This document shows, piece after piece, positions 9,477 through 57,318 of a DNA stretch of 64,000 nucleotides. The DNA is from Deltaproteobacteria bacterium. Its GTDB lineage: Bacteria > Desulfobacterota > Desulfobulbia > Desulfobulbales > JAJRZW01. Location of the stretch: NCBI GenBank assembly GCA_024275015.1, contig JAJRZW010000001.1, positions 706-64,705 on the forward strand, read 5' to 3'. Both the position numbers and the translations under genes were made by a program. The notes under the pieces were generated by a model. That model had not been told where the DNA came from, ran no database searches, and saw nothing but the letters and a program-made list of their open reading frames with translations. Each line of letters begins with the position of its first letter. The first letter of the stretch is position 1.

Positions 9477-10130
9477 ATGCGAAACTTCACCGGCCTTGTC
9501 CGACCGTTGAAAAAACCGGCCATGGCTTTTTCGATCCTGCTCTTTTGTTTACTGCCGGCCTGTGTCATGGCTCCGGCGCCGCGGACGGCCGGGGCCGGGA
9601 TCGTCGAATCGCCGCCGGTGGTATTTGTCCATCCTCTCAATCATGAACTGTACCGGGGGGCGCGGCTGGCGGTGCTGCCGTTTGCGGGCGAAAATCGTGA
9701 GCTCGGGATGAACGCGGCCGCGGTGTTTCGTGACATCTTTCTTGCCAGTGGTCTGTTCAAAGCCGTTTTTGTGGTCGATAAGCAGGCGGGGACCCGGGCC
9801 CGGGCCCGGGCGGTCGCGGGCGATGCCGATCTGGTGGTATTTGCCCGGATCAACCGTGCCTTTATTGATGGCGGCGTCGGCGGCGCCGGGCTGGATGTGT
9901 CATTAAGGATATTGCATGGTAAGAGCGGCGATACGGTGTGGTATATGCGTCAGAGTGTGGAACGACCGGTACGGTGGCCGCGCAAGGACTTTGGCGCCCG
10001 TCTCGGTCGGGCTTTCAGTCCCCAAGCGGTGCTGGCGCCGGCGCCGGCCGCGGTGCTGCCGAATATGCTCACGGTTGTCGCCCGGGATATGGCCCGGGTG
10101 ATGGCCGACAGGAGACGGGCGGGTATCTGA
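9477..10130 (+). CDS. putative lipoprotein, function unknown
   Basis: AGGAG RBS. Signal ends LLPAC. The LAVLPFAGEN...ADLVVFARI pattern loosely resembles LpoB/FlgO/CsgG-fold lipoproteins. Confidence 0.5.
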   Translation: MRNFTGLVRPLKKPAMAFSILLFCLLPACVMAPAPRTAGAGIVESPPVVFVHPLNHELYRGARLAVLPFAGENRELGMNAAAVFRDIFLASGLFKAVFVVDKQAGTRARARAVAGDADLVVFARINRAFIDGGVGGAGLDVSLRILHGKSGDTVWYMRQSVERPVRWPRKDFGARLGRAFSPQAVLAPAPAAVLPNMLTVVARDMARVMADRRRAGI

Positions 10131-10200
10131 AAATTATGGATCCGTGAACTTCTGAAGGGGGCGGCCAAGGCACGGATTTCAGGAAAATGCGTATGCCCCG

Positions 10201-11907
<1,707 letters not shown>

Positions 11908-12277: not shown

Positions 12278-12622
12278 ATGTTTGGTATCGGTCTGCCCGA
12301 GTTAATTCTGATTATGGTCATTGCCCTGCTGGTGGTGGGGCCGGAGAAATTACCCGGCCTGGCGCGAACCATTGCCGGCTATGTGGTGGAGTTGAAAAAG
12401 GCCGCCAATACCCTGAAACAGAGCCTGAACGACGAAGAAGATCAGCGCCCCTGGGAAGGAACGCCGCGGGACTTTACCCTGCCGGAAGGGTTCTCTGCCG
12501 CGACTGGAATCGTGCCGGAACCGGAACCGGAACCGGAGAACGTGGACGCGCAGCAGGCGGCCCCTGCTGATACCGTCCCCGAATCCGGCCACGACCCTGA
12601 GGTCGAAGAAACCGATGGCTGA
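12278..12622 (+). CDS. tatA: twin-arginine translocase TatA/TatB-family subunit
   Basis: MFGIGLPELILIMVIALLVVGPEKLP is a canonical TatA/B N-terminus. Long acidic, Pro-rich tail. ATG 12278 preferred over GTG 12269. Confidence 0.85.
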   Translation: MFGIGLPELILIMVIALLVVGPEKLPGLARTIAGYVVELKKAANTLKQSLNDEEDQRPWEGTPRDFTLPEGFSAATGIVPEPEPEPENVDAQQAAPADTVPESGHDPEVEETDG

Positions 12623-22022: not shown

Positions 22023-23438
22023 TCACATGTCGTCGAAGAAGTCGTCGCCGTTTTTTGTCGCCGGCGCGATTTTCGTGGCCGGGGCGGCCTTTTTTTCTTT
22101 CTTGGGGGCCAACATTTTGGCCACCGCCTCTTTGAGTTTGCTTTCGCTGTCAAGGAGGAACTGGCCCGATATCACCACCTTTTCTCCCGGGGCGATTCCG
22201 TTCTTTATTTCGACCCGGTCACCTTCGATGTTGACTCCCAGGGTGACCTTGCGGGGGATGAAGTTGTCGTTGTCACCGACGACAAAGACCAGATTCTCGG
22301 TGCCGCTGCGGAGGATCGCCTCGGAGGGGACCACGGTGCCGCTGCGACCGGGATCGCTTTTGATCTCAATGTCGGCGTACATGTCGGGTTTGAGGACCAG
22401 ACCGGGGTTTTTGAATTCAATGCGGATGACCACGTCGCGGGTTTTTTTTTGCAGGTAGGGATAAATATAGGAGACCTTGCCGGTGAAAGCGGTCCCGGGC
22501 TGATAGGGCAGGGTCATCTTAGCTGTCTGTCCCATTTTGATCCACGGCAGTTCATATTCAAAGATATGGGCCTCGACCCAGACCCGGGAGAGATCACTTA
22601 TGGCGTATAAAATCTGTCCCGGCCTGATCGCCGCTCCGGCCACCGCCCGGGTGGAGGTCACCACCCCGGTGTAGGGTGAGCGCAGGGGGATGGTCTTGCT
22701 GACCCGGCCGCTTTTTTCGAGATCCCTGATGGTCTCTTCCGGTACATCCCAATAAAGCAGACGGCTGCGGGCCGCTTTTTTCATCTCGCCGCTTGAGCCG
22801 AGGAGCTCCTCCTCGGCGGTGAGGAGTTGCGGTGAATAGATTTCGGCGAGGAGCTCGCCTTTTTTTACCATGGCGCCGGTGAAATCAACCGTCACCTTCT
22901 CAATCCAGCCGCTGACCTTGGGGCTGAGACGATAGGTGCGGGTTTCGTCATAGGTTATATGGCCGTAGGTGCGGATGGTTCGGACCAGCGGCGCGGTTTT
23001 AGCCCTGGCGGTGCGCAGACCCATGTTCTGCCGGGTCACGGGGTTGATTTTTATTTCCACCCCACCTGCGACCTGATCTTCATAGACCGGAACCAGGTCC
23101 ATCCCCATTTTGCTTTTGCCTGGATGGTTATAGACCTCGGTCGGTTCCATCGGCGCGCGCCAGAAGGCGATCTTTCTCTTTTTGTCTCCGTTTTTAGCGG
23201 TGGAGTTGTCGACCTTGGGGACCAGGGTCATGCCGCAGATGGGGCATTGCCCCGGGGCCTCGGTGACGATCCACGGGTGCATGCCGCAGGTCCAGAGCTG
23301 TTTTTCCTCACTGGTGGCGGTGGTCGCGTTCGACCGCTCGTTGTTGCTGCGACCGATGATGATGCCGGTTCCGGTGGCGATCAGCAACAGGATGACGCCT
23401 CCGATGAGGATCAGTTTTTTGTCAGCAGGGATTTTCAT
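22023..23438 (-). CDS. cusB: RND efflux periplasmic adaptor (CusB-like) with N-terminal heavy-metal-binding domain
   Basis: 471 aa. WTCGMHPWIVTEAPGQCPICGMTLVP motif followed by an MFP barrel/lipoyl region. Confidence 0.88.
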   Translation of the reverse strand: MKIPADKKLILIGGVILLLIATGTGIIIGRSNNERSNATTATSEEKQLWTCGMHPWIVTEAPGQCPICGMTLVPKVDNSTAKNGDKKRKIAFWRAPMEPTEVYNHPGKSKMGMDLVPVYEDQVAGGVEIKINPVTRQNMGLRTARAKTAPLVRTIRTYGHITYDETRTYRLSPKVSGWIEKVTVDFTGAMVKKGELLAEIYSPQLLTAEEELLGSSGEMKKAARSRLLYWDVPEETIRDLEKSGRVSKTIPLRSPYTGVVTSTRAVAGAAIRPGQILYAISDLSRVWVEAHIFEYELPWIKMGQTAKMTLPYQPGTAFTGKVSYIYPYLQKKTRDVVIRIEFKNPGLVLKPDMYADIEIKSDPGRSGTVVPSEAILRSGTENLVFVVGDNDNFIPRKVTLGVNIEGDRVEIKNGIAPGEKVVISGQFLLDSESKLKEAVAKMLAPKKEKKAAPATKIAPATKNGDDFFDDM

Positions 23439-24838
23439 TGCATATCCTCCAGGTTGCGGCCGACAGCGAGGGAAAGTTCGGCTGTGGCTGTTCCCAGTTG
23501 CATTTGCGCCGTTGAAAGGGCGAGACGGTTGTTAAGCCAGGCGTCATCAGCCCGGGTGAGGGCGGTAAAGCTGATACTCCCGGCCTCGAGACCGCGGCGG
23601 GCGACGGCAAGGGCGGCCCGGGACAGGGGGACGACGTGTTCTTTAAGCAGTTTAATCCGCCGCCGGTGACGGTCGGCTGTATCCCAGGCGTCGCGGGCTG
23701 TGCCCCGGGCCCGGTGTTTTGCGGCCTTGACTTTTTCATCGGCCGCGTTTACCGCGAGGCGCAGACGTTCAAGGTAAAAGAGGTTGGCGCCCTTGAATCC
23801 GTCCGTTATCCGTCCGGTGGCGGTCATTTTTTTATCCGTGAACCTGCCGCTGATTTCGCCGCCCATACGTCGCGACAGACCGGCGCTGAAGTCGGGAACG
23901 GCCATGAAACGGCCGAGATCGTACATGGTCGCCAGCGTCAGACGGCGGTTTTTTGCCAGCCGCAGGTCAAGGTTTGTCTGTTCGGCCGCGGCGATCATCG
24001 CCTTTGGGTCTGGCGGCGTCGGCGTTGTCGCCGGGGGGATGAAGGTGAAATGGTCAATGGGGGCAGCGCAGAGTTCGAAGAGGTCGCGGCGCAGGGTCTT
24101 TTCCTCTTCTTCAAGATCGCGGAGCCGGGTGGTGAGTTTTTGTTTTTTTATCCGGATGGCGATCACCTGTCCATAGGGGGTCTTGCCGCTGCTATAGCGC
24201 GTCATGGCGACCTTTTCGAGATCACGGAAAAGTTTAAGACTTTTGCCGGTGAGGCCTTGGGCGGTCTGGTTATGGATCAGGCGGAAATAGAGTTTCCGGC
24301 CCCGGGTTATGGCCCGGGCAATGGTCTTTTCCCTCGCGATTCGGGCCTGTTCCACCTCAAGGGCGGCAAGGCGGCTGCGCAGGCTCGCTGATTGCGGCAG
24401 GGCAAGGTCGGTGGTGGCCATTTTTACCGGCCCGACCCCGGGGGCAAGCCCGGCAGTGAAGGATTGATAGGTGGAAAGGAGGTCGTTGATCGCCTGCTCC
24501 TGGCCGTATGTCTCGATCCTGGCCGCCACCGTGGCCCGGGTGCTTTTAATCGCGGGGTTATGTCTCAGGATGAGGGCGCTTAAACGGTTGAGTTCGTTGT
24601 TGCGGTCAAGTCCGGCCTGATCGATGAACGGGATGGTGGTATCGGCGGCGACAGTGATTTTCGCCGTTTCCAGGGATGGGGCCGCCGGGCGTTCTGTCTG
24701 GGGCATGGTGGCCGGTTCGAGGCCTGCCGCGGCCTCGGGCGGTGCGGCAAAAAGCCGCTTTTGTTCGCCGTAGGTCGCGGCGCAGGCGGGGATGGTGGCG
24801 ACGATGGCCAGAAGCATCAAGGTGGTCCGGATGGTCAT
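23435..24838 (-). CDS. TolC-family outer-membrane efflux protein (second of a tandem pair)
   Basis: 467 aa with a signal peptide and coiled-coil-rich TolC/OEP-like repeats. Overlaps both neighbours by 4 nt. Confidence 0.8.
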   Translation of the reverse strand: MTIRTTLMLLAIVATIPACAATYGEQKRLFAAPPEAAAGLEPATMPQTERPAAPSLETAKITVAADTTIPFIDQAGLDRNNELNRLSALILRHNPAIKSTRATVAARIETYGQEQAINDLLSTYQSFTAGLAPGVGPVKMATTDLALPQSASLRSRLAALEVEQARIAREKTIARAITRGRKLYFRLIHNQTAQGLTGKSLKLFRDLEKVAMTRYSSGKTPYGQVIAIRIKKQKLTTRLRDLEEEEKTLRRDLFELCAAPIDHFTFIPPATTPTPPDPKAMIAAAEQTNLDLRLAKNRRLTLATMYDLGRFMAVPDFSAGLSRRMGGEISGRFTDKKMTATGRITDGFKGANLFYLERLRLAVNAADEKVKAAKHRARGTARDAWDTADRHRRRIKLLKEHVVPLSRAALAVARRGLEAGSISFTALTRADDAWLNNRLALSTAQMQLGTATAELSLAVGRNLEDMQ

Positions 24839-35477: not shown

Positions 35478-36138
35478 CATCGGTGATTCCGTGTTTTATC
35501 GCAAACTTGACCAGGGCGGGAATATTAGGGGTTCCGAGTTTCTTCATCAACCGACTGCGATAGGTCTCGACGGTTTTGGCCGAGATGAAGAGGATTCCGG
35601 CGATCTCGGTGCTTGATTTTCCCTATACCACCAGTTGAACGATCTCCCGTTCCCGGGGGCTTAATGACTTCAACGGCCCGTTTTTTTTCAGCCGCATTCC
35701 CTTGGAAAGCAACTCATCGGCCATGGTCCCGGATATCCTCCGGGCCAGGTATCTTTTTCCCCGGGCCACGGTTTTTATGGCCAGAACCACTTCCTGACCG
35801 GCTGATTCTTTGAGGAGATATCCCGTTGCCCCGGCGTTGAGGGCCTGGTGGATATATTCACTGGTGGCGTGCATGGACAGAATGATCACCCGGCATTCCG
35901 GGCAGGCGGTGACGATTTGCAGGGTCGCTTCGATACCGTTCATCTCCGGCATGGCGATATCAACCAGGGCCACATCGGGGCCATGCTCCCTGACCATCCT
36001 GACCGCCTCCCGGCCGTTGGCGGCCTCGCCGACAACCGTGATTCCGCCGGCGGCGAGAAGGCTTTTTAATCCTTCCCGGACAATTCGGTGGTCATCGGCG
36101 AGAAGGATCCTGATATTTTTCGTTTCATACCTCGACAC
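35473..36138 (-). pseudogene. NarL/FixJ-type response regulator interrupted by an in-frame TAG
   Basis: Receiver domain (RILLADDH, DIAMPEMNG), then [43 protein letters not shown]. The stop at 35623-35625 sits where LuxR HTH domains usually have E/Q. Confidence 0.75.
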
Positions 36139-37411
36139 TTATACTTGTTCCCTCCCCGGGGGCCGAGTTCAGTTCCATCCTGCCGCCGATGGCGGTTATC
36201 CTCTCCCGCATGGCAATTATGCCCAAGCCGGAAGCCTCGTCCCCGGAGGTTTCCCGGGTAAAGCCGATACCATCGTCGTTTATCGTCATCCTGGTGCAAT
36301 CCTGTCGGTGTTCGATTCTTACGGTGACGCTGTGGGCCTTGGCGTGTTTGACCACGTTGGTCAACGCCTCCTGGGCGATACGGAACAGGGGCGTTTCCAC
36401 ATTTTCCGTAAGCCTCAGGCCCGGCTCATCGTCGATGATATCTATTTTTAATCCGGTCCGCATGGCTATTTTGTCGCTATAACAGCGAATCGCCGCCGCA
36501 AGTCCGTGGTCGTCGAGGTTGCTTGGTCGCAGTTCCGACATGATGTCACGGATCTCCTCGGTGCTTTCCTCAATGAGACGGAAGGAGTCGGCGAAGAAGG
36601 TTTCCGCCTCTCCTGAGTCATCATGTGTGAACCGATTTTTGATGATGTTGAGGTTGAGGTTGAGGGCGCTCAGCTTCTGCCCGACCCGGTCGTGCAGTTC
36701 GATGGCGATTTTTCGTTTTGCCGACTCTTCAAGATTGGCAAGGCGGGCGGAAAATATCTTCAGTTTCCTCTCGGCCTTTTTCTCCAGGACAAGACTGCGG
36801 CCGGCCCTGAACGCGAGGAGAATGATCAGAACCCCCAGGATCATGGAGATCAGGTAGGTGGCCATGTTTGAGTGGGCGGCAAGGCTGCCAAGCTCCTTTT
36901 TGCTTTTTGTGATGTCGTAATATATCTCAAAAACCCCGATTACCCTGCCACTTCTTATGATCGGGACATAGGTCTCGACCAGGTCGAATTTGTGTAGATC
37001 GCCGTAACGGTTCAGCCCCTCTTTCCGGCTGAGCAGGGTATGGGTTTCGCCGGTCCGGATGATATCTGGGAAGAACGTCTTGCTGGTGTTGCCGCCGATC
37101 TCGGTATGATAGGTGGAATAGACGATTACTCAGTCGGGGGAGTAGACCTTGATTTTCCACAGGCCGATCAGCTTTTTGGTATTTTCGATTTCGCGGATGA
37201 AGTCCGCGGGGAGGTTGTCTTTTGACAGATTGCTGACCTCGATGAGATGAAATGATATCTGGTGGGCGATATTTTCAACCACTTTTTCCGTTTCCCGGAC
37301 GATAAATCCATTATACAGGGGGTTGATTACAAAGATGGAGTAAAGGGGGAGAGTAATGATCGCGACAAAGGCGATAACGACAAAAAGGCGGAGGATTTTC
37401 AGTCTGGGCAC
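36125..37411 (-). pseudogene. HisKA_3/HATPase sensor histidine kinase interrupted by an in-frame TGA
   Basis: Same frame across the stop: TM1, a sensor domain (KVYSPD-TGA-VIVYSTYHTEIGG...VETYVPIIRSGRVIGVFEIYYDIT), TM2, the ELHDRVGQ H-box, and an ATPase domain. Stop at 37130-37132. GTG start at 37411 after GGAG. Confidence 0.7.
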
Positions 37412-37446
37412 ACCCGGCTCCGTTTCGGAATTAAAGAGAAGTAACT

Positions 37447-37575
37447 TCTCAGATCGTTGAAGAAAGCGTCCATGGCTTTTAAACCCCGGTTGACCAAAAC
37501 TTTGTTTCGGCCAGCCTCTCAATTTCGCTGGCGCGTCCCTGCGCCGCACACAGTTCGTTTTCCAACGGACTGTCA
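37447..37575 (+). mobile_element. family-A MITE, shortened copy A6
   Basis: Family-A termini with an internal deletion. Overlaps the ORF-track N-terminal extension of the kinase. Confidence 0.65.
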
Positions 37576-37938
37576 TGATTGTCCACGAATATCTTCCTAT
37601 GGATATTAATGCAATGATTTAGTCCATTTCTTTAAGCCGCGAGTGTCTGGGAACGGGTCAGGTGTAAGTGGGGAACTATGTTGATTATCCTTCGGTATAT
37701 CAATGGGTTGTCCGTCATGCAACCGGCCTGTTTCCTGGAATCCTTCAGGGCGTCAGCATGAGCCCCGACAACTTTAGGCAGACAAACAACAACGTTATAA
37801 CAATTGGTTGGGTTGCTTCCCGCCGCTATCGTCATGGATCCAGGCATTTATCAAAGACTCCCTACAGATAAAACAAACAGACCTGGTTAATAATAAAAGC
37901 GCATACATCATGCATGGAAAATATTTTCCTTTGTTTTC

Positions 37939-38387: not shown

Positions 38388-38822
38388 ATGCGCCAGGACG
38401 AAGTTCCACAGGATGAGGGTATTGCCGAGGGGTTGGTCGAGGTCACCTACGCGGTTGATGATGACGGGCATTATACCCAGGTCGGCAGCGCCGGATGGGA
38501 ACCCAAGAATATCTCCAATCATCAGGCATGGGAAGAGATCGTGAAAAAGGTCGAGGCGGTCCGGGCCGAAGTCGAGGCCGGGCGGGTATCGCCGTTGGCC
38601 TTTCACATGGCGAGAAACCAGATGGAGGCGGGGCTTCTGGCAAGCTATATGGGGCTTTTCCGCTGGCAGGTGCGCCGTCACCTTAAACCGGCGGTATTCG
38701 CCCGGCTTGAGTCCGAACTCCTTGAACGCTATGCCGCGATGCTCAGGACCACGGTGGCGGCCCTGGGCGACATTAATCTTGCCCCGGAGATGAAGATTCC
38801 CGGCAGCCGCGGGGGGGCATGA
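38388..38822 (+). CDS. hypothetical protein (possible HTH-like), first gene of a three-gene cluster
   Basis: 144 aa from MRQDEVPQDEG. Its stop overlaps the next start (ATGA). The ORF-track N-terminus lies in MITE A7. Confidence 0.5.
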   Translation: MRQDEVPQDEGIAEGLVEVTYAVDDDGHYTQVGSAGWEPKNISNHQAWEEIVKKVEAVRAEVEAGRVSPLAFHMARNQMEAGLLASYMGLFRWQVRRHLKPAVFARLESELLERYAAMLRTTVAALGDINLAPEMKIPGSRGGA

Positions 38823-39820
38823 TGGAGATTGACTTTACCCACCGCCAGTCGGCCCACTGCGAGAACGGGGTTACCGCCAACCTCGTCAGTCATTACGGCA
38901 TTTCCATGAGTGAGCCCCTGGCGTTTGGTATCGGCGGCGGACTTTTTTTTGGCTATATCCCCTTCATGCGTTTAAACGGCCTGCCCCTTACCACTTTCAG
39001 GGCCATAACCGGGCTTATCTTTAAGCGGGTAACCCGGGAACTCGGGATAAAGACCGTGAGCCGCAGATTCAGGAGCCGGGCGGAGTCGATGCGGGTTCTC
39101 GACGAGGTTCTTGGTCGCGGGATTCCGGTGGGGCTGCAGACCGGGGCCTGGTGGCTGCCCTATTTCCCCGAGGCCTATCGTTTTCATTTCAACATGCATA
39201 ACCTGGTGGTGTACGGCAAGCGGGGCGACGATTATCTTATCAGCGACCCGGTGTTCCCGGAGCCGGTGGTCTGTGACGGCGCCGACCTCGCCCGGGCAAG
39301 GTTTACCAAGGGAACCCTGGCGCCAAAGGGGCGGATGTACTACCTCGAACATGTCCCGGAAAATGTCGACTGCAGGGACCCGGTGCGCAAGGGTATCAAG
39401 ACCGTTTGCCGGGCGATGCTCAAAAGCTCTCTGCCCATTATCGGCGTTTCCGGTATCCGTTTTCTTGCCCGCCGGCTTGAACGGTGGCCGCGGAAACTCG
39501 GTGATGACCGGGCCCTGCTTCATCTCGGGCAGTTGATCCGGATGCAGGAGGAGATCGGCACCGGCGGCGCCGGGTTCCGTTTTATCTACGCCGCCTTTTT
39601 AGAGGAGGCGGCCGGGGTGTTCGGCGAGGATTACTTCCTCGAGTTGTCGAAGCGTCTCACTGCTATCGGTGACCGCTGGCGTGAATTTGCGGTCCGTGCG
39701 GCGAGAAATTGCAAGGGCCGCGCCAGCGACGATGACAGCTATCCGGCGATGGCGGCTATTTTAATGGATTGCGCCGAGCGGGAGGAAAAACTCTATCGTG
39801 ATCTGTTGCAGACTGTCTGA
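38819..39820 (+). CDS. BtrH_N / DUF4872 domain protein (papain-like fold family)
   Basis: 333 aa. The N-terminal QSAHCENGVTANL motif and overall layout match BtrH N-terminal plus DUF4872 proteins. Confidence 0.65.
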   Translation: MMEIDFTHRQSAHCENGVTANLVSHYGISMSEPLAFGIGGGLFFGYIPFMRLNGLPLTTFRAITGLIFKRVTRELGIKTVSRRFRSRAESMRVLDEVLGRGIPVGLQTGAWWLPYFPEAYRFHFNMHNLVVYGKRGDDYLISDPVFPEPVVCDGADLARARFTKGTLAPKGRMYYLEHVPENVDCRDPVRKGIKTVCRAMLKSSLPIIGVSGIRFLARRLERWPRKLGDDRALLHLGQLIRMQEEIGTGGAGFRFIYAAFLEEAAGVFGEDYFLELSKRLTAIGDRWREFAVRAARNCKGRASDDDSYPAMAAILMDCAEREEKLYRDLLQTV

Positions 39821-39850
39821 GTCGGGGATTTTAATCTTAAAGACCTTAAC

Positions 39851-41185
39851 ATGAAAATTCTCCTTGTAAGTCCTGCCTGGCACGACAAGATGAACGAGAA
39901 TATCCGGGTTTTGGCCCTGCCGCCGCTTAATCTCGCCACCATTGCCGCCTGTACCCCGGAAGGGCACGAGGTGGAAATTTTCGACGAGGCCTTTGACGAG
40001 ATTGATTACGCCGTTGATGTCGATCTGGTCGGAATTACCTGCATGACCCCGCTTGCGCCACGGGCCTATGATATCGCGGCTGGATTCCGCCAACGGGGGG
40101 TGCCGGTGGTCATAGGCGGCATTCATTCTTCGATGTTGCCGGATGAGGCCGCGGCTCACGCCGACTGCGTGGTTGTGGGCGAGGCCGAGGGGATCTGGCC
40201 CCAGGTAGTCAACGACTGTGCCGCCGGGAAGATGAAAAAGCTCTATCAGGCGGAGAAAAGGCCGGACATCACTTTTTTGAAACAACCGCGCCGTGATCTC
40301 CTGACCAATAAATATTTTGTTCAGACGGTGCAGACCTCGCGCGGATGTCCCAATAACTGCAAATTCTGTTCAGTCACCCGGTTTAACGGTGGTCAGTACC
40401 GTCTTCGCGATATCGATAACGTCATCGACGAAATCCGTTCGATTGCCGACAAGCGTCTGTTCATCATCGACGACAATATCATCGGCTCGGGCAATAACTG
40501 CATTGACCGCGCCTTTGTTTTTTTTGAGCGTTTGGCCGAGTGTAAAAAAGAGTGGGGCGGCCAGACCTGTCTCAATATAGTCGAGCACGACGGATTGCTG
40601 GCCGCGGCGCGCAAGAGCGGCGCCCGTGCTTTTTTAATCGGGTTTGAGTCCATCGACGATGCCGCACTCGGCGGTTTTGACAAGAAGATCAACATGCGTC
40701 CGACCACCCGTAATTTTCGCGAGGCGATAAAAAAAATTCACGACCACGGTATAGCTGTTGTCGGCGGCTTTATCTTTGGTACCGACAGTGACAACCCTGA
40801 TACCTTTCGCCGGACCCTCGATTTTATTATTGAGACCGGAGTTGACGCGGTGCAGCTTTCGATTCAGACCCCGCTGCCCGGCACCGAACTTTATCGGCAA
40901 TTGCAGCAGGACGGGCGGTTGCTCCTCACCGATTACCCTGCCGACTGGGAGGCCTACAATATTTTTGAGCCGGTTTTTCAGCCATTGAACCAAAGCCCGG
41001 AAGAACTTTACCGCAACCTGATGGCTGCCTACCGTGAGGTCTCGGCCCCTTGGCCGTCGTTTATCCGCGGGCTTAAGACCTTGATGGCGACAAGGAGTAT
41101 GTTCGCCACTGGTATTTCTTTTTTCTGGAACTACGACTCCTGTAAGACCATTTCCAAGATAACCCGGCCCCGGATTTACACTTGA
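39851..41185 (+). CDS. B12-binding-domain radical SAM protein (class B)
   Basis: 444 aa with an N-terminal cobalamin-binding-like Rossmann region (MKILLVSPAW...VVIGGIH) and the CPNNCKFC CxxxCxxC motif. Confidence 0.88.
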   Translation: MKILLVSPAWHDKMNENIRVLALPPLNLATIAACTPEGHEVEIFDEAFDEIDYAVDVDLVGITCMTPLAPRAYDIAAGFRQRGVPVVIGGIHSSMLPDEAAAHADCVVVGEAEGIWPQVVNDCAAGKMKKLYQAEKRPDITFLKQPRRDLLTNKYFVQTVQTSRGCPNNCKFCSVTRFNGGQYRLRDIDNVIDEIRSIADKRLFIIDDNIIGSGNNCIDRAFVFFERLAECKKEWGGQTCLNIVEHDGLLAAARKSGARAFLIGFESIDDAALGGFDKKINMRPTTRNFREAIKKIHDHGIAVVGGFIFGTDSDNPDTFRRTLDFIIETGVDAVQLSIQTPLPGTELYRQLQQDGRLLLTDYPADWEAYNIFEPVFQPLNQSPEELYRNLMAAYREVSAPWPSFIRGLKTLMATRSMFATGISFFWNYDSCKTISKITRPRIYT

Positions 41186-50548: not shown

Positions 50549-51664
50549 TTATTTTTCCCCGGATTCGGGGATATCACCCAGGCAGATACCGATTTCGCGG
50601 GCGGTTTTCATCTTGTCGCAGTCAAGGGGGACCTGTTTTCTTTTTTCTATCGCCCGGGCCAGGGGGACGGCGGTCATGCTGGTGCCTTCAAGGGCGACCA
50701 TGTGATCAAAGGTGCCCTCCTCGGCAAGTCTTACCGCCGCAGCCCCGAAGCGCAGGGCCAGCAGGCGGTCAAAGGTGGTGGGGGAGCCGCCCCGCTGCAG
50801 GTGCCCCAGGACCAGGGATCGGGTGTCCTTGCCGGCGCAGGTCCTGATTTTGTCAGCCACCCATTCGCCGATGCCGCCGAGGAGGACCTCGTGGCGGCCG
50901 ACCTCTTTCTTGTCGTTTCCCTTGCAGATGACGGTGTTGTCCTTGCCTTTGGCTCCTTCGGCGACCACGACGATGGCGTAATGTTTGCCGTGCAGTTCGT
51001 TTTCGGCTATCTTGTCGCATATCCCCTTGATCTCAAAAGGAATCTCGGGGAGAAGGATGATGTCGGCGCCGCCGGATATCCCCGAGTTGAGAGCGATCCA
51101 GCCTGCTTCTCGACCCATTACTTCGACCACCATAACCCGGTCATGGCTTTTGGCGGTGGAGTGGAGTTTGTCCAGGGCCTCGGTGGCGGTGGAGACCGCG
51201 GTGTCGAAACCAAAGGTGAGCTGGGTCGCCTCAAGGTCGTTGTCAATGGTCTTTGGGACTCCGATCACCGGCATCCCTTTTTTTTCGGCAAAGCGGTGGG
51301 CGATTTCAAGGCTGCCGTCCCCGCCGACGGCGATGTGGCAGAAGAATCCCATCCGCTCAAAGTTTTTCATTACCCGGTCGGACACATCGCGGATCTGGAT
51401 CTCGCCGGCCAGGTTTTCCACCGGCATCGCAAAGGGGTTGCCCTTGTTGGTGGAGCCGAGGATGGTGCCGCCGGTTGGGGTGATGTCTTTGACCTCTTCC
51501 GCGGTCAGGCGTACAAGTTCATCGGGATCGAGAAGTCCCCTGTAGCCGCTCTTTGAGCCGTAGACTTCCCAATCCCGGGACTCCGCCGCCCGCACCACCG
51601 CGTAGATGACGGCGTTGAGTCCAGGGGCGTCCCCGCCGCCGGTTGAGATGACGATTCGTTTCAT
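50549..51664 (-). CDS. pfkA: 6-phosphofructokinase (ATP-dependent type by the GGDGS motif)
   Basis: 371 aa with TGGGDAPGLNA, VGGDGS and PKTIDND motifs. Confidence 0.92.
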   Translation of the reverse strand: MKRIVISTGGGDAPGLNAVIYAVVRAAESRDWEVYGSKSGYRGLLDPDELVRLTAEEVKDITPTGGTILGSTNKGNPFAMPVENLAGEIQIRDVSDRVMKNFERMGFFCHIAVGGDGSLEIAHRFAEKKGMPVIGVPKTIDNDLEATQLTFGFDTAVSTATEALDKLHSTAKSHDRVMVVEVMGREAGWIALNSGISGGADIILLPEIPFEIKGICDKIAENELHGKHYAIVVVAEGAKGKDNTVICKGNDKKEVGRHEVLLGGIGEWVADKIRTCAGKDTRSLVLGHLQRGGSPTTFDRLLALRFGAAAVRLAEEGTFDHMVALEGTSMTAVPLARAIEKRKQVPLDCDKMKTAREIGICLGDIPESGEK

Positions 51665-51832: not shown

Positions 51833-52048
51833 GAGTGTCAATGGTCCCTTCAAGGTACAAAAATGGAAGAGAAAAAGTCGCGGCAACTTCAGGCTTTGCT
51901 TAAATATTGAATTGACTATTTCCCTTATCGGATATATTATTAGATCTAAGTTATGTTTTTGGTAATGAGAGTTTCGGGGCCGGCCCGATGGAGTTTATTA
52001 CCGAAAGTAAATGCGGCGCAAGCCCCAAAAGAACCGGAGGTTTACTGT

Positions 52049-52379
52049 CATGCTGGAAGTAACTGATCTGGCGATCGAGAACATCAAGACCTATATGGAG
52101 GAGAACAGCCTTGATTCCGCTCTAAGGGTTGCCCTTATGCAGGGTGGCTGATCGGGGCCCTCCCTGGGATTGGCTCTGGATGAGCCAAAAGACACTGATT
52201 TTCGCCTGGATAAAGACGCCGTTACCTTTGTCGTTGATAACGATTTGCTTGGCAATTGTGGCGGTATCAAGGTCGATTTTATTGACTCCGGAATGCGTTC
52301 CGGTTTTTCTGTGACCTCAACCAATCCCATTGCCGACGGTGGCAGTGGTTGTGGCAGTTGCGGCAGCAGCTGCGGTTAA
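52049..52379 (+). CDS. HesB/IscA-like selenoprotein (in-frame UGA; apparent 1-nt frameshift near the 5' end)
   Basis: GGAGG RBS, then ATG 52049 encoding MLEVTDLAIE. After the A-run at 52079-81 the family-like sequence continues in the +1 frame: NIKTYMEENSLDSALRVALMQGG-TGA(52149-51)-SGPSLGLALDEPKD...GSGCGSCGSSCG. Confidence 0.6.
52170..52188 (+). promoter_or_regulatory. candidate bacterial SECIS hairpin
   Basis: UUGGCUC-UGGAU-GAGCCAA: a 7-bp stem whose 5-nt apical loop contains GG, starting 19 nt after the UGA. Confidence 0.5.
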
Positions 52380-52412
52380 ACTGAAAACAATTTCTCTTCA
52401 TCTCCTCACTTT

Positions 52413-52451
52413 AAGCCTGCCGTGGTTTTTTGATCCCGGTAGGCTTTTTTT
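52413..52451 (+). terminator. rho-independent terminator after the selenoprotein gene
   Basis: AAGCCTGCCG...CGGTAGGCTT stem followed by T7. Confidence 0.7.
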
Positions 52452-52497
52452 CGTTCACCAGGGCCAGGCGCAGATCTGCGCCTGGCCCTGGTGAACG
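52452..52497. repeat. 46-bp perfect palindrome
   Basis: CGTTCACCAGGGCCAGGCGCAGATCTGCGCCTGGCCCTGGTGAACG with no mismatch, centred on AGATCT. Confidence 0.9.
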
Positions 52498-52568
52498 GTA
52501 TTTCTTTGCCGCTGAGTTTGAAATTGCGTTCATCCTGCTTGAATTTTTCGCCCGGCTTCATTTAAGCT

Positions 52569-54056
52569 ATGGCCATGGCAGGTAAATCCGTCACAGCTAT
52601 TCTCGTTATTTTTTTTCTCTTCCCTCCGCTTGCGGCAATCGCCGGTGCTTCCGGGGTTCGGGAGGCGGTATGGGCCGGGGCCTTTTATCCTGCCGATTAC
52701 AGGGAACTGAAGAGGGAGGTGGCCGGGGATATCGCCTACGGGGCTGCGCGGCTGCGCCGGAGGGGGGTGTCGGCAAGGCCCCTGATTATCATTATTCCCC
52801 ATGCCGGTTACCGTTATTCCGGCCGCATTGCCGGGGTCGCCGCCGCCGCGGTTGCCCGGCGCGGATATAAACGGGTTATCATTATCGCCCCCGACCACCG
52901 GGTCGGTTTCTCCGGGGTGGCGACCATGGCCCGGGGCGCCTACCGCACTCCCCTGGGGCTGGTTTCCGTTGATCCGGAGGCGGCGGTATTGATGTCCCGG
53001 GGGAGATTATTTCATCGGGTTGCCGCTTCGGACAACAGCGAGCACGCGGTTGAGGTGGTTCTGCCCTTTCTCCAGTCGGCCCTGGGCGGATTTTCCCTGA
53101 TCCCTCTGGTTTCCTCCAGGGTTGCGCCGCAGACGCTGGCGGACGCCGTTGTTCCCCTCCTTTCCCCGGAAACCCTGCTGGTTATTTCGAGTGATTTTTC
53201 CCATTATCTCCCCTATGACCGGGCCGTGGCCCATGACCAGGCCACCATAAGGGCCATCCTTAACCTTGATCTGGACGTTTTTCAGGGGATCAAAAATAGT
53301 GCCTGCGGCCGTACCGGGATCGCGGCGGCGATAATCGTCGCCCGGCGACTCGGTCTTGCTCCGGAACTTCTGGCCCGGGCCAACAGCGGTGATGCCACCG
53401 CCGACCGCGGCCGGGTGGTGGGTTACGTTGCCATGGGGTTTTATAAAAATGAAAAAACAGCGACGGAGAGAAAAATGCCGGAACTCAGTAACGAACAGGG
53501 CCGGGCGCTGTTGCTTCTGGCGCGGCGTACTATCCTGAAAAAGTTCGGCCGGGATCCCGGCGTCGAAGACGGGCCGGAGGCCGTCGTCCTCGACGATCCG
53601 GTTTTTTCAACCCGGCGGGGGGTATTTGTCACCCTTAACCGCCGCGGGCGTCTGCGTGGATGTATCGGCAGCCTTGCCGGGGTTGAGAGTATTGTCGCGG
53701 GGGTGAGGAGAAACGCCGTTAATGCCGCCTTTAATGATCCACGTTTTAAACCCCTGAGCGCGGAGGAACTTGCGGATCTGGAGATCGAGGTCAGTATTCT
53801 CACCGAGGCTGAGCCGCTGGCCTTTAACGACAGCGACGAGCTGATAAGAAAATTGCGGCCCGGCATCGATGGGGTCATTATTCGCGACGGCATCCACAGC
53901 GCTACTTTTCTTCCCCAGGTGTGGGAGCAGATTCCGGTCCCGGCTGATTTTCTGACCCATCTCTGCCGCAAGGCCGGAATGGCGGGGAACCGCTGGCAGC
54001 GTCCCGGACTCACCGTCCTTGCTTATCAGGTGCAGTATTTTGCCGAGGGCGGATGA
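52569..54056 (+). CDS. AmmeMemoRadiSam system fusion protein: MEMO1-like (protein B) + AMMECR1 (protein A), with signal-like N-terminus
   Basis: N-terminal half has FYPADYRELK, IIIPHAGYRYSG and SEHAVEVVLPFLQ (MEMO). C-terminal half has GVFVTLNRRGRLRGCIGS and ATFLPQVWEQ (AMMECR1). First 29 aa are hydrophobic, ending AIAGASG. Confidence 0.85.
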   Translation: MAMAGKSVTAILVIFFLFPPLAAIAGASGVREAVWAGAFYPADYRELKREVAGDIAYGAARLRRRGVSARPLIIIIPHAGYRYSGRIAGVAAAAVARRGYKRVIIIAPDHRVGFSGVATMARGAYRTPLGLVSVDPEAAVLMSRGRLFHRVAASDNSEHAVEVVLPFLQSALGGFSLIPLVSSRVAPQTLADAVVPLLSPETLLVISSDFSHYLPYDRAVAHDQATIRAILNLDLDVFQGIKNSACGRTGIAAAIIVARRLGLAPELLARANSGDATADRGRVVGYVAMGFYKNEKTATERKMPELSNEQGRALLLLARRTILKKFGRDPGVEDGPEAVVLDDPVFSTRRGVFVTLNRRGRLRGCIGSLAGVESIVAGVRRNAVNAAFNDPRFKPLSAEELADLEIEVSILTEAEPLAFNDSDELIRKLRPGIDGVIIRDGIHSATFLPQVWEQIPVPADFLTHLCRKAGMAGNRWQRPGLTVLAYQVQYFAEGG

Positions 54057-56136
54057 GGCGCTGCGGGTAAAGCGGCTCCTGTTCGCCGCCGGTGCCGCCA
54101 CCGTATTGGTGCAGTTGGTGATGGTGCGGGAGCTTTTGGTCCGTTTCAGTGGCAATGAATTCGTCATCGCGGTCATCTTTTTTATCTGGCTTGTCAGTGG
54201 CGCTATCGGTGCCTTTGCCGCCCCCCGCCTTGGCCGTTTTTTTTCCGCCACCGGTGAGCGTTTATGGTGGCTTGCCCTCCTGCTTGTTATTCTGCCGCAG
54301 CTTATGGTCGGCGCTGTTGCCATCCTCGCCCCCATCCTGACCCTGCCCGGGGTATCAGCGGGATTTTACCCCACCCTGTTTTTTGTTATTCTCCTTATCA
54401 GTCCCTATTGTTTTGCCATCGGGGTTTTTTTCCCCTGGGCCCTTGCCCGGTACGCCCCGCGCGTGAGCGGCAGGGGCGCGGCCCGGATCTATCTTGCCGA
54501 TACCGGCGGCGGGGTAATCGCCTCTTTGCTGTTTGTCCTGTTGCTGGTACGTTTTTTTTCTTCATTCACGGTGGTGGTCGGGGGGGGCTTTGTTTTTTTT
54601 CTGGCGGCCCTGCCTTTTATGCCGCAACATAGGCGTGCCCGGGCGGCAGGCCTGTTTTTCCTCTGTCTGGCGATTGCGGCGGCGGCATTACTGCGTTTTT
54701 TTGCTCCATCTCCCTATAATGGCAGGATCGTAAGCGCGCGCGATTCCCGTTTCGGCCGGATCGAGGTGGTGAAAAAGGCGGAACAGAGCACGGTGATGAC
54801 AAACGGCCGGCCGGTATTCATCAGTCAGACGCCGGCCCTGGCCGAGGAATTGGTGCATTACCCCGCCTCCCTGGTTGCCTCGCCCCGGCGGATGTTGTTT
54901 ATCGGCGCGGTGGCGGGTATTTTTGTCGAGGCGGCGAAATACCGTCCCCGGACCCTTGATTATCTTGAGATTGATCCGGACTTAAGCCGCGTTCTCCTGG
55001 CCGGGGGGCTGGTTGTTCCGGTATCCGGCCTGAGGGTGATTAACCGTGATCCGCGTCTTTTCCTGGCCGGGAGCGGGGATAAATACGATATGATCGTCAT
55101 CGCCCGCGGTGAGCCTGAGACCTTTGGCGATAACCGTCTTTTCACCCGGGAGTTCATGGCCCTGGTCCGAGCTCACCTCGCTCCCGGCGGGGTCTTTGCC
55201 TTCGGGGTTGACGGTTTTGAAAATTACCTTGGCCCCGCGTCCCGGCAGCGGTTTGCCTGTTATTATGCCACCATGAGATCGGTTTTTCCCGAGGTAGCGA
55301 TGATCCCAGGCCGGAAAACGATTTTTATCGGTTCATCCCGTCGGCCGCGGCTGGACATCCCCGGGATTCTCCGATCCCGGGGGATCGTTACCAGTTATCT
55401 GGCGCCGTTTTTCCGGGGTGAGGTTACTCCGGAGCGTCTGCGGTACCTTGAGGACGCGGTCCGGGTCCGGAACGCGTCGCTGAATCTTGATCTGCACCCC
55501 GCCATTGTCCGCATGGTCCTTGATCACTGGTTTGAAAGGTTTGCCGGCTCGCCTTTCTGGTTTGCGGTTCCGGTCTGCGTGTTTTTTCTCTTGCTTCTCC
55601 TCCGCGCCTCTCCCGGAGAGTATACCCTGCTCACCGCCGGTTTTACCTCGATGGCGGTGGAGACTGTGGCGGTGTTCGCCTTTGCCGTTTTTCATGGTTA
55701 TATTTTTGAACAAATCGGTATTTTGATCTCCCTTGCCCTGGCCGGGATTTTTGTCGGCCTCCGCTTTGGCGCCGGAGTCCGGGATAAAGAGAGCCGGGGG
55801 GTGATCCTGGCCGCTGACGCGGCGATTATCGTCCTTGCCCTTTTATGGGCCGTAAGCCTTGGCCGTTTTAATGACGGGATAACCACGGTTATTATTCTGT
55901 TTATGACTTTTACCCTTTCACTTGCCTCCGGGTTGCAGTTCGGCCCGGCAATAAATCTCAGCCCTGACGGGCCGAATGGGGCGGCCGGGGCCTTTGGCGC
56001 CGATCTCGCCGGGGCCGGGGCCGGGGTGCTTCTCATCGCCCTTGTGATCCTGCCCGGTTATGGCCTGGCGGCGGCGGTGGCGTCAATCGCGATAATAAAG
56101 GCCACAGGTATGGTCCGGGTTTTTTCCGCGGGGTGA
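54019..56136 (+). CDS. polytopic membrane protein with central spermidine-synthase-like (AdoMet-dependent) domain
   Basis: 705 aa with many TM segments at both ends. The middle region (FGRIEVVKK...MLFIGAVAGI...YLEIDPDL...YDMIVIA...FTREF) resembles aminopropyltransferases. Overlaps the upstream gene; start uncertain (54019 or 54040). Confidence 0.72.
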   Translation: MLIRCSILPRADEALRVKRLLFAAGAATVLVQLVMVRELLVRFSGNEFVIAVIFFIWLVSGAIGAFAAPRLGRFFSATGERLWWLALLLVILPQLMVGAVAILAPILTLPGVSAGFYPTLFFVILLISPYCFAIGVFFPWALARYAPRVSGRGAARIYLADTGGGVIASLLFVLLLVRFFSSFTVVVGGGFVFFLAALPFMPQHRRARAAGLFFLCLAIAAAALLRFFAPSPYNGRIVSARDSRFGRIEVVKKAEQSTVMTNGRPVFISQTPALAEELVHYPASLVASPRRMLFIGAVAGIFVEAAKYRPRTLDYLEIDPDLSRVLLAGGLVVPVSGLRVINRDPRLFLAGSGDKYDMIVIARGEPETFGDNRLFTREFMALVRAHLAPGGVFAFGVDGFENYLGPASRQRFACYYATMRSVFPEVAMIPGRKTIFIGSSRRPRLDIPGILRSRGIVTSYLAPFFRGEVTPERLRYLEDAVRVRNASLNLDLHPAIVRMVLDHWFERFAGSPFWFAVPVCVFFLLLLLRASPGEYTLLTAGFTSMAVETVAVFAFAVFHGYIFEQIGILISLALAGIFVGLRFGAGVRDKESRGVILAADAAIIVLALLWAVSLGRFNDGITTVIILFMTFTLSLASGLQFGPAINLSPDGPNGAAGAFGADLAGAGAGVLLIALVILPGYGLAAAVASIAIIKATGMVRVFSAG

Positions 56137-56139
56137 AAA

Positions 56140-57318
56140 ATGGCTGTTGACCGGCGCAGGTTCATAAAGGGCTCAGCCCTCATCGTCTCGTCCTTGGCCC
56201 TTGGCGGCGGGGTAATCTGGCTTGGCAATAACCGCGGTCGTTTCAGTCGGTTGAGCGATATCACCGGCCATGTTTTTCGCGGTCAGGCCCCGGATACCCC
56301 CGGCCCTTTCGCCCGCGAGGCGATGTTTTATGAAAAGACACCCGGTGCCACGGTGGTCTGCGCTCATTGCCGTCATGCCTGCCGCCTTGCTGCCGGTGAC
56401 ATGGGCCTCTGTCGCAATCGCGCCAATATAGGCGGGGTTCTCTATTCCCTGGCGTACGGTAACCCCTGTTCTTTCAACCTTGATCCGGTGGAGAAAAAGC
56501 CCCTGTTTCATTATCGTCCCGGGACCAGCGCTTTTTCCATCGCCACTGCCGGCTGTAATTTTCGCTGCCTCAACTGTCAGAACTGGGAAATATCACAGAA
56601 GCGGCCCGACGAGGTACGGCATCGGGAGATGTTCCCGGCGGCGGTGGTTGAAGAGGCGCGGAAGAGGGGGGCGGCGTCCATCGCCTATACCTATTCCGAG
56701 CCGGCGACCTTCTACGAGTATATGCTTGACACCGCCGCTCTGGCAAAAGAACGGGGGATCGGTGGTCTGTTCATCTCCAACGGCTATCTTAACCCTGAAC
56801 CCCTTGTCGGTCTCTGCCGGGTCATTACCGCCGCCAATATCAATCTCAAGGCCTTTGACGAGACCACCTACCGCAGCCTTGACGGCGGTGGGCTTGCCCC
56901 GGTGCTTGAGACCCTCAGGATTATCCACCGTGAAGGGGTGCATCTTGAGGTTACCAGCCTGGTGATTCCCGGTTATACCGACAAGGTTGAAGACCTGAAA
57001 AGGATGTGCGCCTGGATTCTCGCCAACCTCGGCCCTGACGTGCCGCTGCATTTTCTCCGTTTCTTTCCCCGTTATCGTCTTGACCGTCTTGAGGCTACCC
57101 CGGTTTCCACCATCGAGTCATTCCGCGAAATCGCCATGGCCCAGGGTATTCATTACGCCTATGTCGGTAATGCGGGGATCACTCCCGGGGCCGATACCTT
57201 CTGCCATAATTGCGGCAAATTGCTGATTGAGAGAAGGGGGTACCTCCTGCCGGTGATGGACGTCATTGCCGGCCACTGCAAATACTGCCGCGCCGTGATT
57301 CCCGGGTTATGGGGATGA
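56140..57318 (+). CDS. AmmeMemoRadiSam system radical SAM enzyme with N-terminal twin-arginine motif
   Basis: MAVDRRRFIKGSALIVSSLALGGG, then an auxiliary Cys cluster (CAHCRHAC...LC), then CNFRCLNCQNW (CxxxCxxC). Starts 4 nt after the upstream stop. Confidence 0.85.
   Translation: MAVDRRRFIKGSALIVSSLALGGGVIWLGNNRGRFSRLSDITGHVFRGQAPDTPGPFAREAMFYEKTPGATVVCAHCRHACRLAAGDMGLCRNRANIGGVLYSLAYGNPCSFNLDPVEKKPLFHYRPGTSAFSIATAGCNFRCLNCQNWEISQKRPDEVRHREMFPAAVVEEARKRGAASIAYTYSEPATFYEYMLDTAALAKERGIGGLFISNGYLNPEPLVGLCRVITAANINLKAFDETTYRSLDGGGLAPVLETLRIIHREGVHLEVTSLVIPGYTDKVEDLKRMCAWILANLGPDVPLHFLRFFPRYRLDRLEATPVSTIESFREIAMAQGIHYAYVGNAGITPGADTFCHNCGKLLIERRGYLLPVMDVIAGHCKYCRAVIPGLWG

Follow-up and report, generated by a model that had tools for sequence, protein, structure and literature searches.

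Results

The hesB locus and its reading frame

The DNA analysed here, which we call the window, is a stretch of 64,000 nucleotides that contains a short gene of the IscA/HesB family (hereafter hesB). The gene and its flanking elements are arranged as follows.

51912..51940 (+): sigma-70-like promoter candidate, TTGACT-17-TATTAT (consensus scan, 10/12 matches; pattern only)
52036..52040 (+): Shine-Dalgarno sequence GGAGG, 9 nt 5' of the ATG (sequence read)
52050..52379 (+): IscA/HesB-family selenoprotein gene (translation, NF038090, TIGR00049, PF01521)
52149..52151 (+): UGA selenocysteine (Sec) codon, residue 34, in the motif GG-U-S-G-P (TGA in relatives, Cys in paralogs and distant homologs)
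52170..52188 (+): bacterial SECIS hairpin, stem 52170-52176/52182-52188, apical loop UGGAU at 52177-52181
52413..52451 (+): intrinsic-terminator-like hairpin AAGCCUGCCG...CGGUAGGCUU followed by a U-run (fold of 52380-52510, sequence read)

The promoter candidate sits in the intergenic region between pfk and hesB. Across 84 upstream regions (83 related loci and the window), no conserved 5'-UTR element was detected beyond the Shine-Dalgarno sequence, and GG.GG was the sole conserved upstream motif. The divergently transcribed pfk gene (50549-51664, −) neighbours hesB in 66 of the 83 loci, a synteny from which we read no functional link. According to family scans, the neighbours in the window are housekeeping genes, encoding GlyS, DnaJ, PurA, TatC, CydAB, a Cus-type efflux system, RibF and HflKC; further neighbours encode citrate synthase, GlnRS, GluRS, a UvrD/PcrA-like helicase, FolC, PFK, an AmmeMemoRadiSam system and BioA.

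The region 3' of the gene has features of its own. A perfect inverted repeat of 46 nt (52452-52497; CGTTCACCAGGGCCAGGCGCAG ATCT GCGCCTGGCCCTGGTGAACG), unique in the window, lies directly 3' of the hesB terminator and precedes the AmmeMemoRadiSam gene; it could act as another terminator, bind a protein or represent a REP-like element. The fold of 52380-52510, spanning both terminator and repeat, has a z-score of −11. The AmmeMemoRadiSam system occupies 52569-57318, directly 3' of hesB. Its fused B+A protein (52569-54056) and its radical SAM partner (56140-57318) are separated by a fused MFS/spermidine-synthase-like ORF of 705 residues (54019-56136), which overlaps the B+A gene at the latter's end. 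In the related loci L005, L015 and L024 the three genes are arranged in the same way. Elsewhere in the window, 38819-41185 contains a strong match to the BtrH-related acyltransferase DarH (NF053550, 464 bits vs a cutoff of 300), followed by a B12-binding radical SAM enzyme related to hopanoid/lipid methylase-type families, although it reaches none of their cutoffs; the pair may form a small operon for lipid or natural-product modification.

Read from the ATG at 52050-52052, the interval 52050-52379 (+) is one unbroken frame of 109 codons plus TAA with a single in-frame TGA, and its direct translation is MLEVTDLAIENIKTYMEENSLDSALRVALMQGG-TGA-SGPSLGLALDEPKDTDFRLDKDAVTFVVDNDLLGNCGGIKVDFIDSGMRSGFSVTSTNPIADGGSGCGSCGSSCG-TAA. 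Sequence and translation agree on the TGA at 52149-52151 in the context ...LRVALMQGG-TGA-SGPSLGLALDEPKD, and translation confirmed the C-terminal end GSGCGSCGSSCG with the TAA stop at 52377-52379, both as described in an earlier note on this DNA, whose GGAGG ribosome-binding site was likewise found. In the ORF list of the window, MLEVTDLAIENIKTYMEENSLDSALRVALMQGG (MLEVTD...MQGG) is held by an ORF at 52011..52151 ending at this TGA, and the part 3' of the TGA lies in the same frame. The start codon is fixed by homologs that begin with MLEV or MFEV, several of them with a stop codon just before.

The earlier note had described a selenoprotein gene that additionally carried a frameshift. Its first half is upheld by the comparative data presented below, whereas the second is contradicted by the frame and by the reading of the bases. 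The note had placed the ATG at 52049, ended the start frame at a TGA at 52112-52114, and joined the two parts by a +1 shift, an indel or a disruption at an AAA at 52079-52081. However, 52049-52052 reads CATG, which puts the ATG one base later; the bases at 52079-52081 are GAA (..GAG AAC ATC..), with no A-run; and the TGA at 52112-52114 is in frame with 52049 only and out of frame with the real ATG. The frameshift arose on paper because the ATG was set one base early and an absent AAA was read, and the case illustrates how a one-base coordinate slip can produce a false story of recoding plus frameshift. We therefore rejected a programmed +1 frameshift or a disrupted gene, since the N- and C-terminal parts share one frame and there is no slippery A-run. 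The homologs likewise speak against a real frameshift, whether an assembly indel, a disruption or a programmed +1 shift in an A-run near 52079-52081: the 109-residue product aligns with them end to end, with gaps only in the variable Gly/Ser/Cys-rich C-terminal tail, and the spacing from start codon to TGA is 33 codons in 80/80 of the best 80 of 514 relatives. We assign a real frameshift practically no probability.

The UGA codon in relatives

Relatives were gathered by scanning one genome per species (GTDB representatives). Of the 514 relatives confirmed in this way, the best 80 were retained, which belong without exception to Desulfobulbales or other Thermodesulfobacteriota. Every one of these best 80 of 514, one per species, shows TGA at the codon corresponding to codon 34. 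In remoter homologs and in the tandem paralogs the Sec column is TGC or TGT, and IscA-type chains in the PDB align the Cys of their GGCSG motif to the site, in keeping with the earlier proposal that the TGA occupies the column of the GGC(S/G)G cysteine. The alignment to homologs, which the earlier note had suggested as a check, thus gave Cys or TGA at the column, rather than the lack of both Cys and Sec that would speak against a selenoprotein. The in-frame UGA stands opposite a homolog Cys, and TGA orthologs elsewhere are conserved on both sides of the codon, as expected of a selenoprotein gene.

A database search returned 238 homologs; of the 24 that were aligned, 17 have C opposite the UGA and 7 have W. 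The W-type homologs have TGA in the DNA: contig L083, the source of P0001, reads GGT TGA GCT, and under table 11 it does not translate to the stored protein P0001. In public gene calls from metagenomes, Trp (GGW[AS]GP) stands for the Sec UGA in P0001, P0003, P0007, P0011, P0014, P0019 and P0054, with L083 498-827 as an example locus.

At the protein level, conservation 3' of the UGA is at least as high as that 5' of it among 84 Sec-form sequences. Residues conserved in at least 95% of them are GPSLGLALDE, K, D, F, V, L, CG, K, D and G and, further on, RSGF, P, C104 and C108-G; 83 of the 84 also have Cys70.

Another in-frame TGA in the window, at 37130-37132 (−), splits a NarL-type sensor histidine kinase (37576..36125) with the layout TM1, periplasmic sensor domain, TM2, HisKA_3 and HATPase. 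As a Sec codon it was rejected, the column being Gly in 6/6 aligned homologs (..SPD-TGA-VIVYST vs ..P/S-x-G-x-I-I-Y-S-T); it appears to be either a nonsense mutation (GGA to TGA) or an error in sequencing. Among the other TGA-interrupted ORFs of the window, no selenoprotein candidate with a Cys/Sec signature was found.

That kinase indicates that nonsense changes or sequencing errors may occur in this DNA, and the TGA of hesB could by analogy be a nonsense mutation of a Cys codon, leaving a pseudogene with a 33-residue fragment or two unrelated small ORFs. Against this, the column is Cys in hesB homologs, whereas it is Gly in those of the kinase; the TGA is found in all of the best 80 of 514 relatives; and it is followed by a nucleotide-invariant hairpin and by strong amino-acid conservation downstream (GPSLGLALDE...RSGF...C...CG, at 95% or more). 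Nor does the downstream ORF have a conserved start codon or ribosome-binding site, as the TTG at 52170 is CTG in 15 loci. Since the relatives are conserved on both sides of the TGA, a pseudogene is excluded, and we regard a nonsense origin of the codon as hardly credible.

The SECIS hairpin

The hairpin TTGGCTC-TGGAT-GAGCCAA, which had been put forward as a candidate SECIS, lies exactly at 52170-52188, embedded in the codons for L-A-L-D-E-P-K. A bSECISearch model was reportedly presented by Zhang and Gladyshev in 2005. According to a 2026 review (PMC13188914), the constraints on bacterial SECIS (bSECIS) elements are an apical loop of 3-9 nt, an upper stem of 4-16 bp, a G in the first two loop positions, a distance of 16-37 nt between UGA and loop, and a free energy of at most −7.5 kcal/mol. 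The candidate satisfies all of these published constraints, with a 7-bp stem, a 5-nt loop (UGGAU, with G at position 2 followed by G) starting 25 nt after the UGA, and a free energy of −10.1 to −10.2 kcal/mol. SECIS elements lie inside the coding region in bacteria and mostly in the 3' UTR in archaeal members (PMC13188914). As a coding-region stem-loop just 3' of the UGA, the hairpin resembles the bacterial SECIS consensus and the SECIS of E. coli fdhF, and it shares with the consensus the size of the loop, the position of its G residues, the 7-bp upper stem and the 25-nt spacing. It differs from the consensus in that RNAalifold, run on 80 sequences, detected no conserved lower stem between UGA and hairpin.

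Taken alone, the hairpin is weak evidence, and it becomes significant only through comparative data. The window contains 2242 TGA triplets, 6.5% of which precede an ungapped hairpin fitting the bSECIS constraints and 2.5% a qualifying hairpin at least as stable, and the local fold z-score of the UGA-proximal region, −0.84 for the single sequence, is uninformative. Searches with Rfam at gathering and permissive thresholds found no SECIS or other family on the hesB gene; the Rfam matches at the locus were miRNA-like chance hits on the palindrome 3' of the gene and were discarded.

The comparative data concern the 80 Sec-form orthologs (best 80 of 514 relatives), in which the free energy is −7.5 kcal/mol or lower in 79. 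Their codon counts at the hairpin, numbered from the UGA, are as follows.

Ala +8: GCT in 80/80
Leu +9: CTG in 80/80
Asp +10: GAT in 75/80
Glu +11: GAG in 80/80
Pro +12: CCA in 67/75

Codons +7 to +13 show zero or near-zero synonymous variation in these Sec forms; the codons for Ala, Leu, Pro, Ser and Gly just 5' of the hairpin and 5' of the UGA vary freely, with an entropy of 1.3-2.0 bits. For the amino acids of the hairpin codons, codon entropy at other places in the gene is 1.5-2.0 bits. The only consistent structure that RNAalifold found in the 80 sequences is the hairpin at 52170-52188, and 97% of the cells in the stem alignment are paired. Pairing is kept through four G-C to G-U changes accompanied by Pro to Ser and through six U-A to U-G changes, and one G-C to U-A double change, in L037, comes at the cost of Pro to Gln. 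Covariation is thin and its statistics are modest, since the stem scarcely changes and 3 of its 7 pairs never vary. The window hairpin matches the family consensus at all 19 nt, and the 17-nt SECIS core GGCUCUGGAUGAGCC is invariant throughout the order. The pattern of substitution shows an RNA element under selection beyond the protein code.

Cysteine paralogs

Four related loci (L021, L036, L056 and L074) have a Cys paralog near the Sec gene, and in Desulfobulbus oligotrophicus (L081, CP054140.1) a Cys copy and a Sec copy stand in tandem at 10001-10330 and 10442-10771. Checked in the DNA, the D. oligotrophicus protein P0027 has a true TGC at the Sec column. The Cys copies encode the same peptide through other codons, and their hairpin is absent or weak (0 to −5.8 vs −10.2 kcal/mol); synonymous freezing of the hairpin codons is confined to the Sec forms and does not extend to the Cys paralogs. 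In the tandem pair of D. oligotrophicus, the SECIS of the Sec copy is intact, and the hairpin of the Cys copy is disrupted by one substitution, GAG to GAA (−3.5 vs −10.2 kcal/mol).

Genetic code and selenocysteine machinery

TGA is the stop codon of 25 of the 32 family-supported genes in the window, and therefore the genetic code is not reassigned. It also ends 62 of 84 members of the NF038090-type family. Because TGA is a normal stop codon here, its reading as Sec must be local and dependent on a signal. These counts bear on the idea that the UGA of hesB is read as a standard amino acid (Trp, Gly or Cys), by a reassigned code or by near-cognate read-through. Several public gene calls do give W at the homologous TGA, but these are gene-caller artefacts, as the comparison of L083 with its stored protein under table 11 indicates, and a conserved SECIS-type hairpin would be needless for such a reading. 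We find it very improbable.

ARAGORN and Rfam found no tRNA-Sec in the 64-kb window, and ARAGORN found none in 1.04 Mb of related loci; family scans of approximately 42 ORFs of the window found no SelA, SelB or SelD. A search for selA, selB, selC and selD elsewhere in the genome had been suggested in the earlier note; conducted within the 64-kb window only, it turned up none of the four. ARAGORN did call two other tRNAs, a 79-nt tRNA-Ser(gct) at 12512-12590 (−) and an 87-nt tRNA-His(atg) at 24240-24326 (+), the latter within the ORF of an outer-membrane efflux protein (23435-24838). Both calls lack Rfam tRNA support at the gathering threshold and are probably false positives.

The Sec machinery of the source genome is presumed from the intact gene and the lineage. 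Desulfotalea psychrophila belongs to the Desulfobulbales. In the literature, this species has 12 selenoproteins including SelD, and Thermodesulfobacteriota are among the most selenoprotein-rich bacteria. The gene could nevertheless be a recent relic in a genome that has lost the machinery, so that the ORF looks intact and is no longer expressed at full length. The absence of Sec genes from the 64-kb window would fit such a history, and losses of selenoproteins within the HesB-like family are on record (PMC1794560, Table 1). However, the reading frame, the Sec codon and the complete 19-nt SECIS are intact, the hairpin being that of the family consensus, and the richness of the lineage in selenoproteins points the same way, which leaves a relic very improbable.

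Family assignment of the product

For profile searches, the Sec of the query protein was written as Cys. The scores obtained were as follows.

NCBIfam NF038090 'IscA_HesB_Se': 136.9 bits vs cutoff 85, above
TIGR00049 (Fe-S assembly accessory protein): 66.5 bits vs cutoff 58.8, above
Pfam PF01521 (Fe-S_biosyn): 36.2 bits vs cutoff 26.3, above
TIGR01911 'HesB_rel_seleno': 35.6 bits vs cutoff 66.35, below
Equivalog models IscA, SufA and ErpA: 33-49 bits vs cutoffs 117-181, below

The assignment to the HesB/IscA family made in the earlier note is thus supported by three models. The NF038090 match is full-length (residues 1-103 against profile positions 1-101 of 101, E = 2.4e-40). With 83 relatives the product has in common the GG-U/C-x-GPSLGLALDE core, Cys70 and the Cys-rich C-terminal tail; it differs from the NF038090 family in nothing of substance and is a further ortholog, not a variant. 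The nearest genomic relative, L001, is 84% identical over residues 1-94. A literature search on 'NF038090' found no paper.

The HesB-like selenoproteins of TIGR01911 resemble the product in the HesB/IscA fold, in Sec at the first conserved Cys, in the motif U-x-G-P (here U-S-G-P, residues 34-37) and in having Cys-containing homologs, and they are typical of anaerobic Deltaproteobacteria. The 92-position profile of TIGR01911, however, stops before the C-terminal Cys-rich tail that is conserved in the NF038090 subfamily. Judged from these profile matches, the hesB product is related to TIGR01911 but falls in the sister model NF038090.

The A-type carriers IscA, SufA and ErpA share the same domain over its whole length. 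E-values to solved structures range from 1e-13 to 2e-3 (PDB 1nwb, 2apn, 1r94, 1s98, 1x0g and 2d2a; the proteins are Aquifex aq_1857, H. influenzae HI1723, E. coli IscA/YfhF, and T. elongatus IscA and SufA). IscA has three ligand cysteines, C...C-G-C. The hesB product differs from these carriers in having Sec in place of the first ligand Cys, an additional conserved Cys70, and C-x2-C-x3-C-G in place of the C-terminal C-G-C ligand pair. Its C-terminus reads G-C-G-S-C-G-S-S-C-G, with no C-G-C, and one Cys only aligns with the CGC of aq_1857.

Discussion

We consider it highly probable (roughly 93%) that the locus carries an intact, monocistronic selenoprotein gene of the IscA/HesB-type NF038090 family, encoding 109 residues with UGA at codon 34 and a SECIS, and no frameshift. 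It is a real selenoprotein gene of an already known family and not a new finding. HesB-like selenoproteins are an established family, common in Deltaproteobacteria/Thermodesulfobacteriota and present in the prokaryotic selenoproteome catalogue for two decades. The work of Kryukov and Gladyshev of 2004 belongs to the literature on it. Zhang et al. (2006, PMC1794560) tallied eleven bacterial HesB-like selenoproteins, of which Deltaproteobacteria contributed many, the family with its motif UxGP is listed in Table 1 of the 2026 review (PMC13188914), and the HesB-like selenoprotein of Methanococcus maripaludis was verified by 75Se labelling (as reported in PMC11097638).

By the established bacterial Sec pathway, the SECIS hairpin would recruit SelB-GTP-Sec-tRNA(Sec) to the ribosome, and the UGA at codon 34 would then be decoded as selenocysteine rather than as a stop; without selenium or SelB, translation would end after 33 residues. 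The mature protein would combine Sec34 with the family-conserved Cys70 and a Cys-rich C-terminal tail (C101, C104 and C108). Sec34 might serve as a more reactive ligand than Cys, and together with Cys70 and the C-x2-C-x3-C-G tail it could stand in for the canonical C...CGC triad. Going by its sequence, the product's probable role is to bind iron or an Fe-S cluster or pass it on, or to perform thiol/selenol redox chemistry.

The main use of the present analysis lies in correct annotation, because standard gene callers split or truncate the hesB selenoprotein gene or read its UGA as Trp, and Sec forms of NF038090-type proteins are hidden in protein databases under this wrong residue. The locus adds one more ortholog to a selenoprotein family widespread in Desulfobulbales. 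It also offers a clean example of a SECIS within coding sequence, documented by comparison of 80 species in which its synonymous sites are frozen and by the decayed hairpin of the Cys paralogs.

A more specific role, as a selenium-liganded carrier of Fe-S clusters or iron whose Sec and Cys isoforms are switched by selenium supply, would resemble the Sec/Cys isoenzyme switch of Methanococcus. The invariance of the 17-nt SECIS core may point to unusually tight recognition by SelB. We think such a role unlikely. The window holds a single Sec copy with no regulator identified, and nothing in it argues for isoform switching. In the genomes where Cys and Sec copies are neighbours, the pair may provide a substrate for selenium-dependent isoform use.
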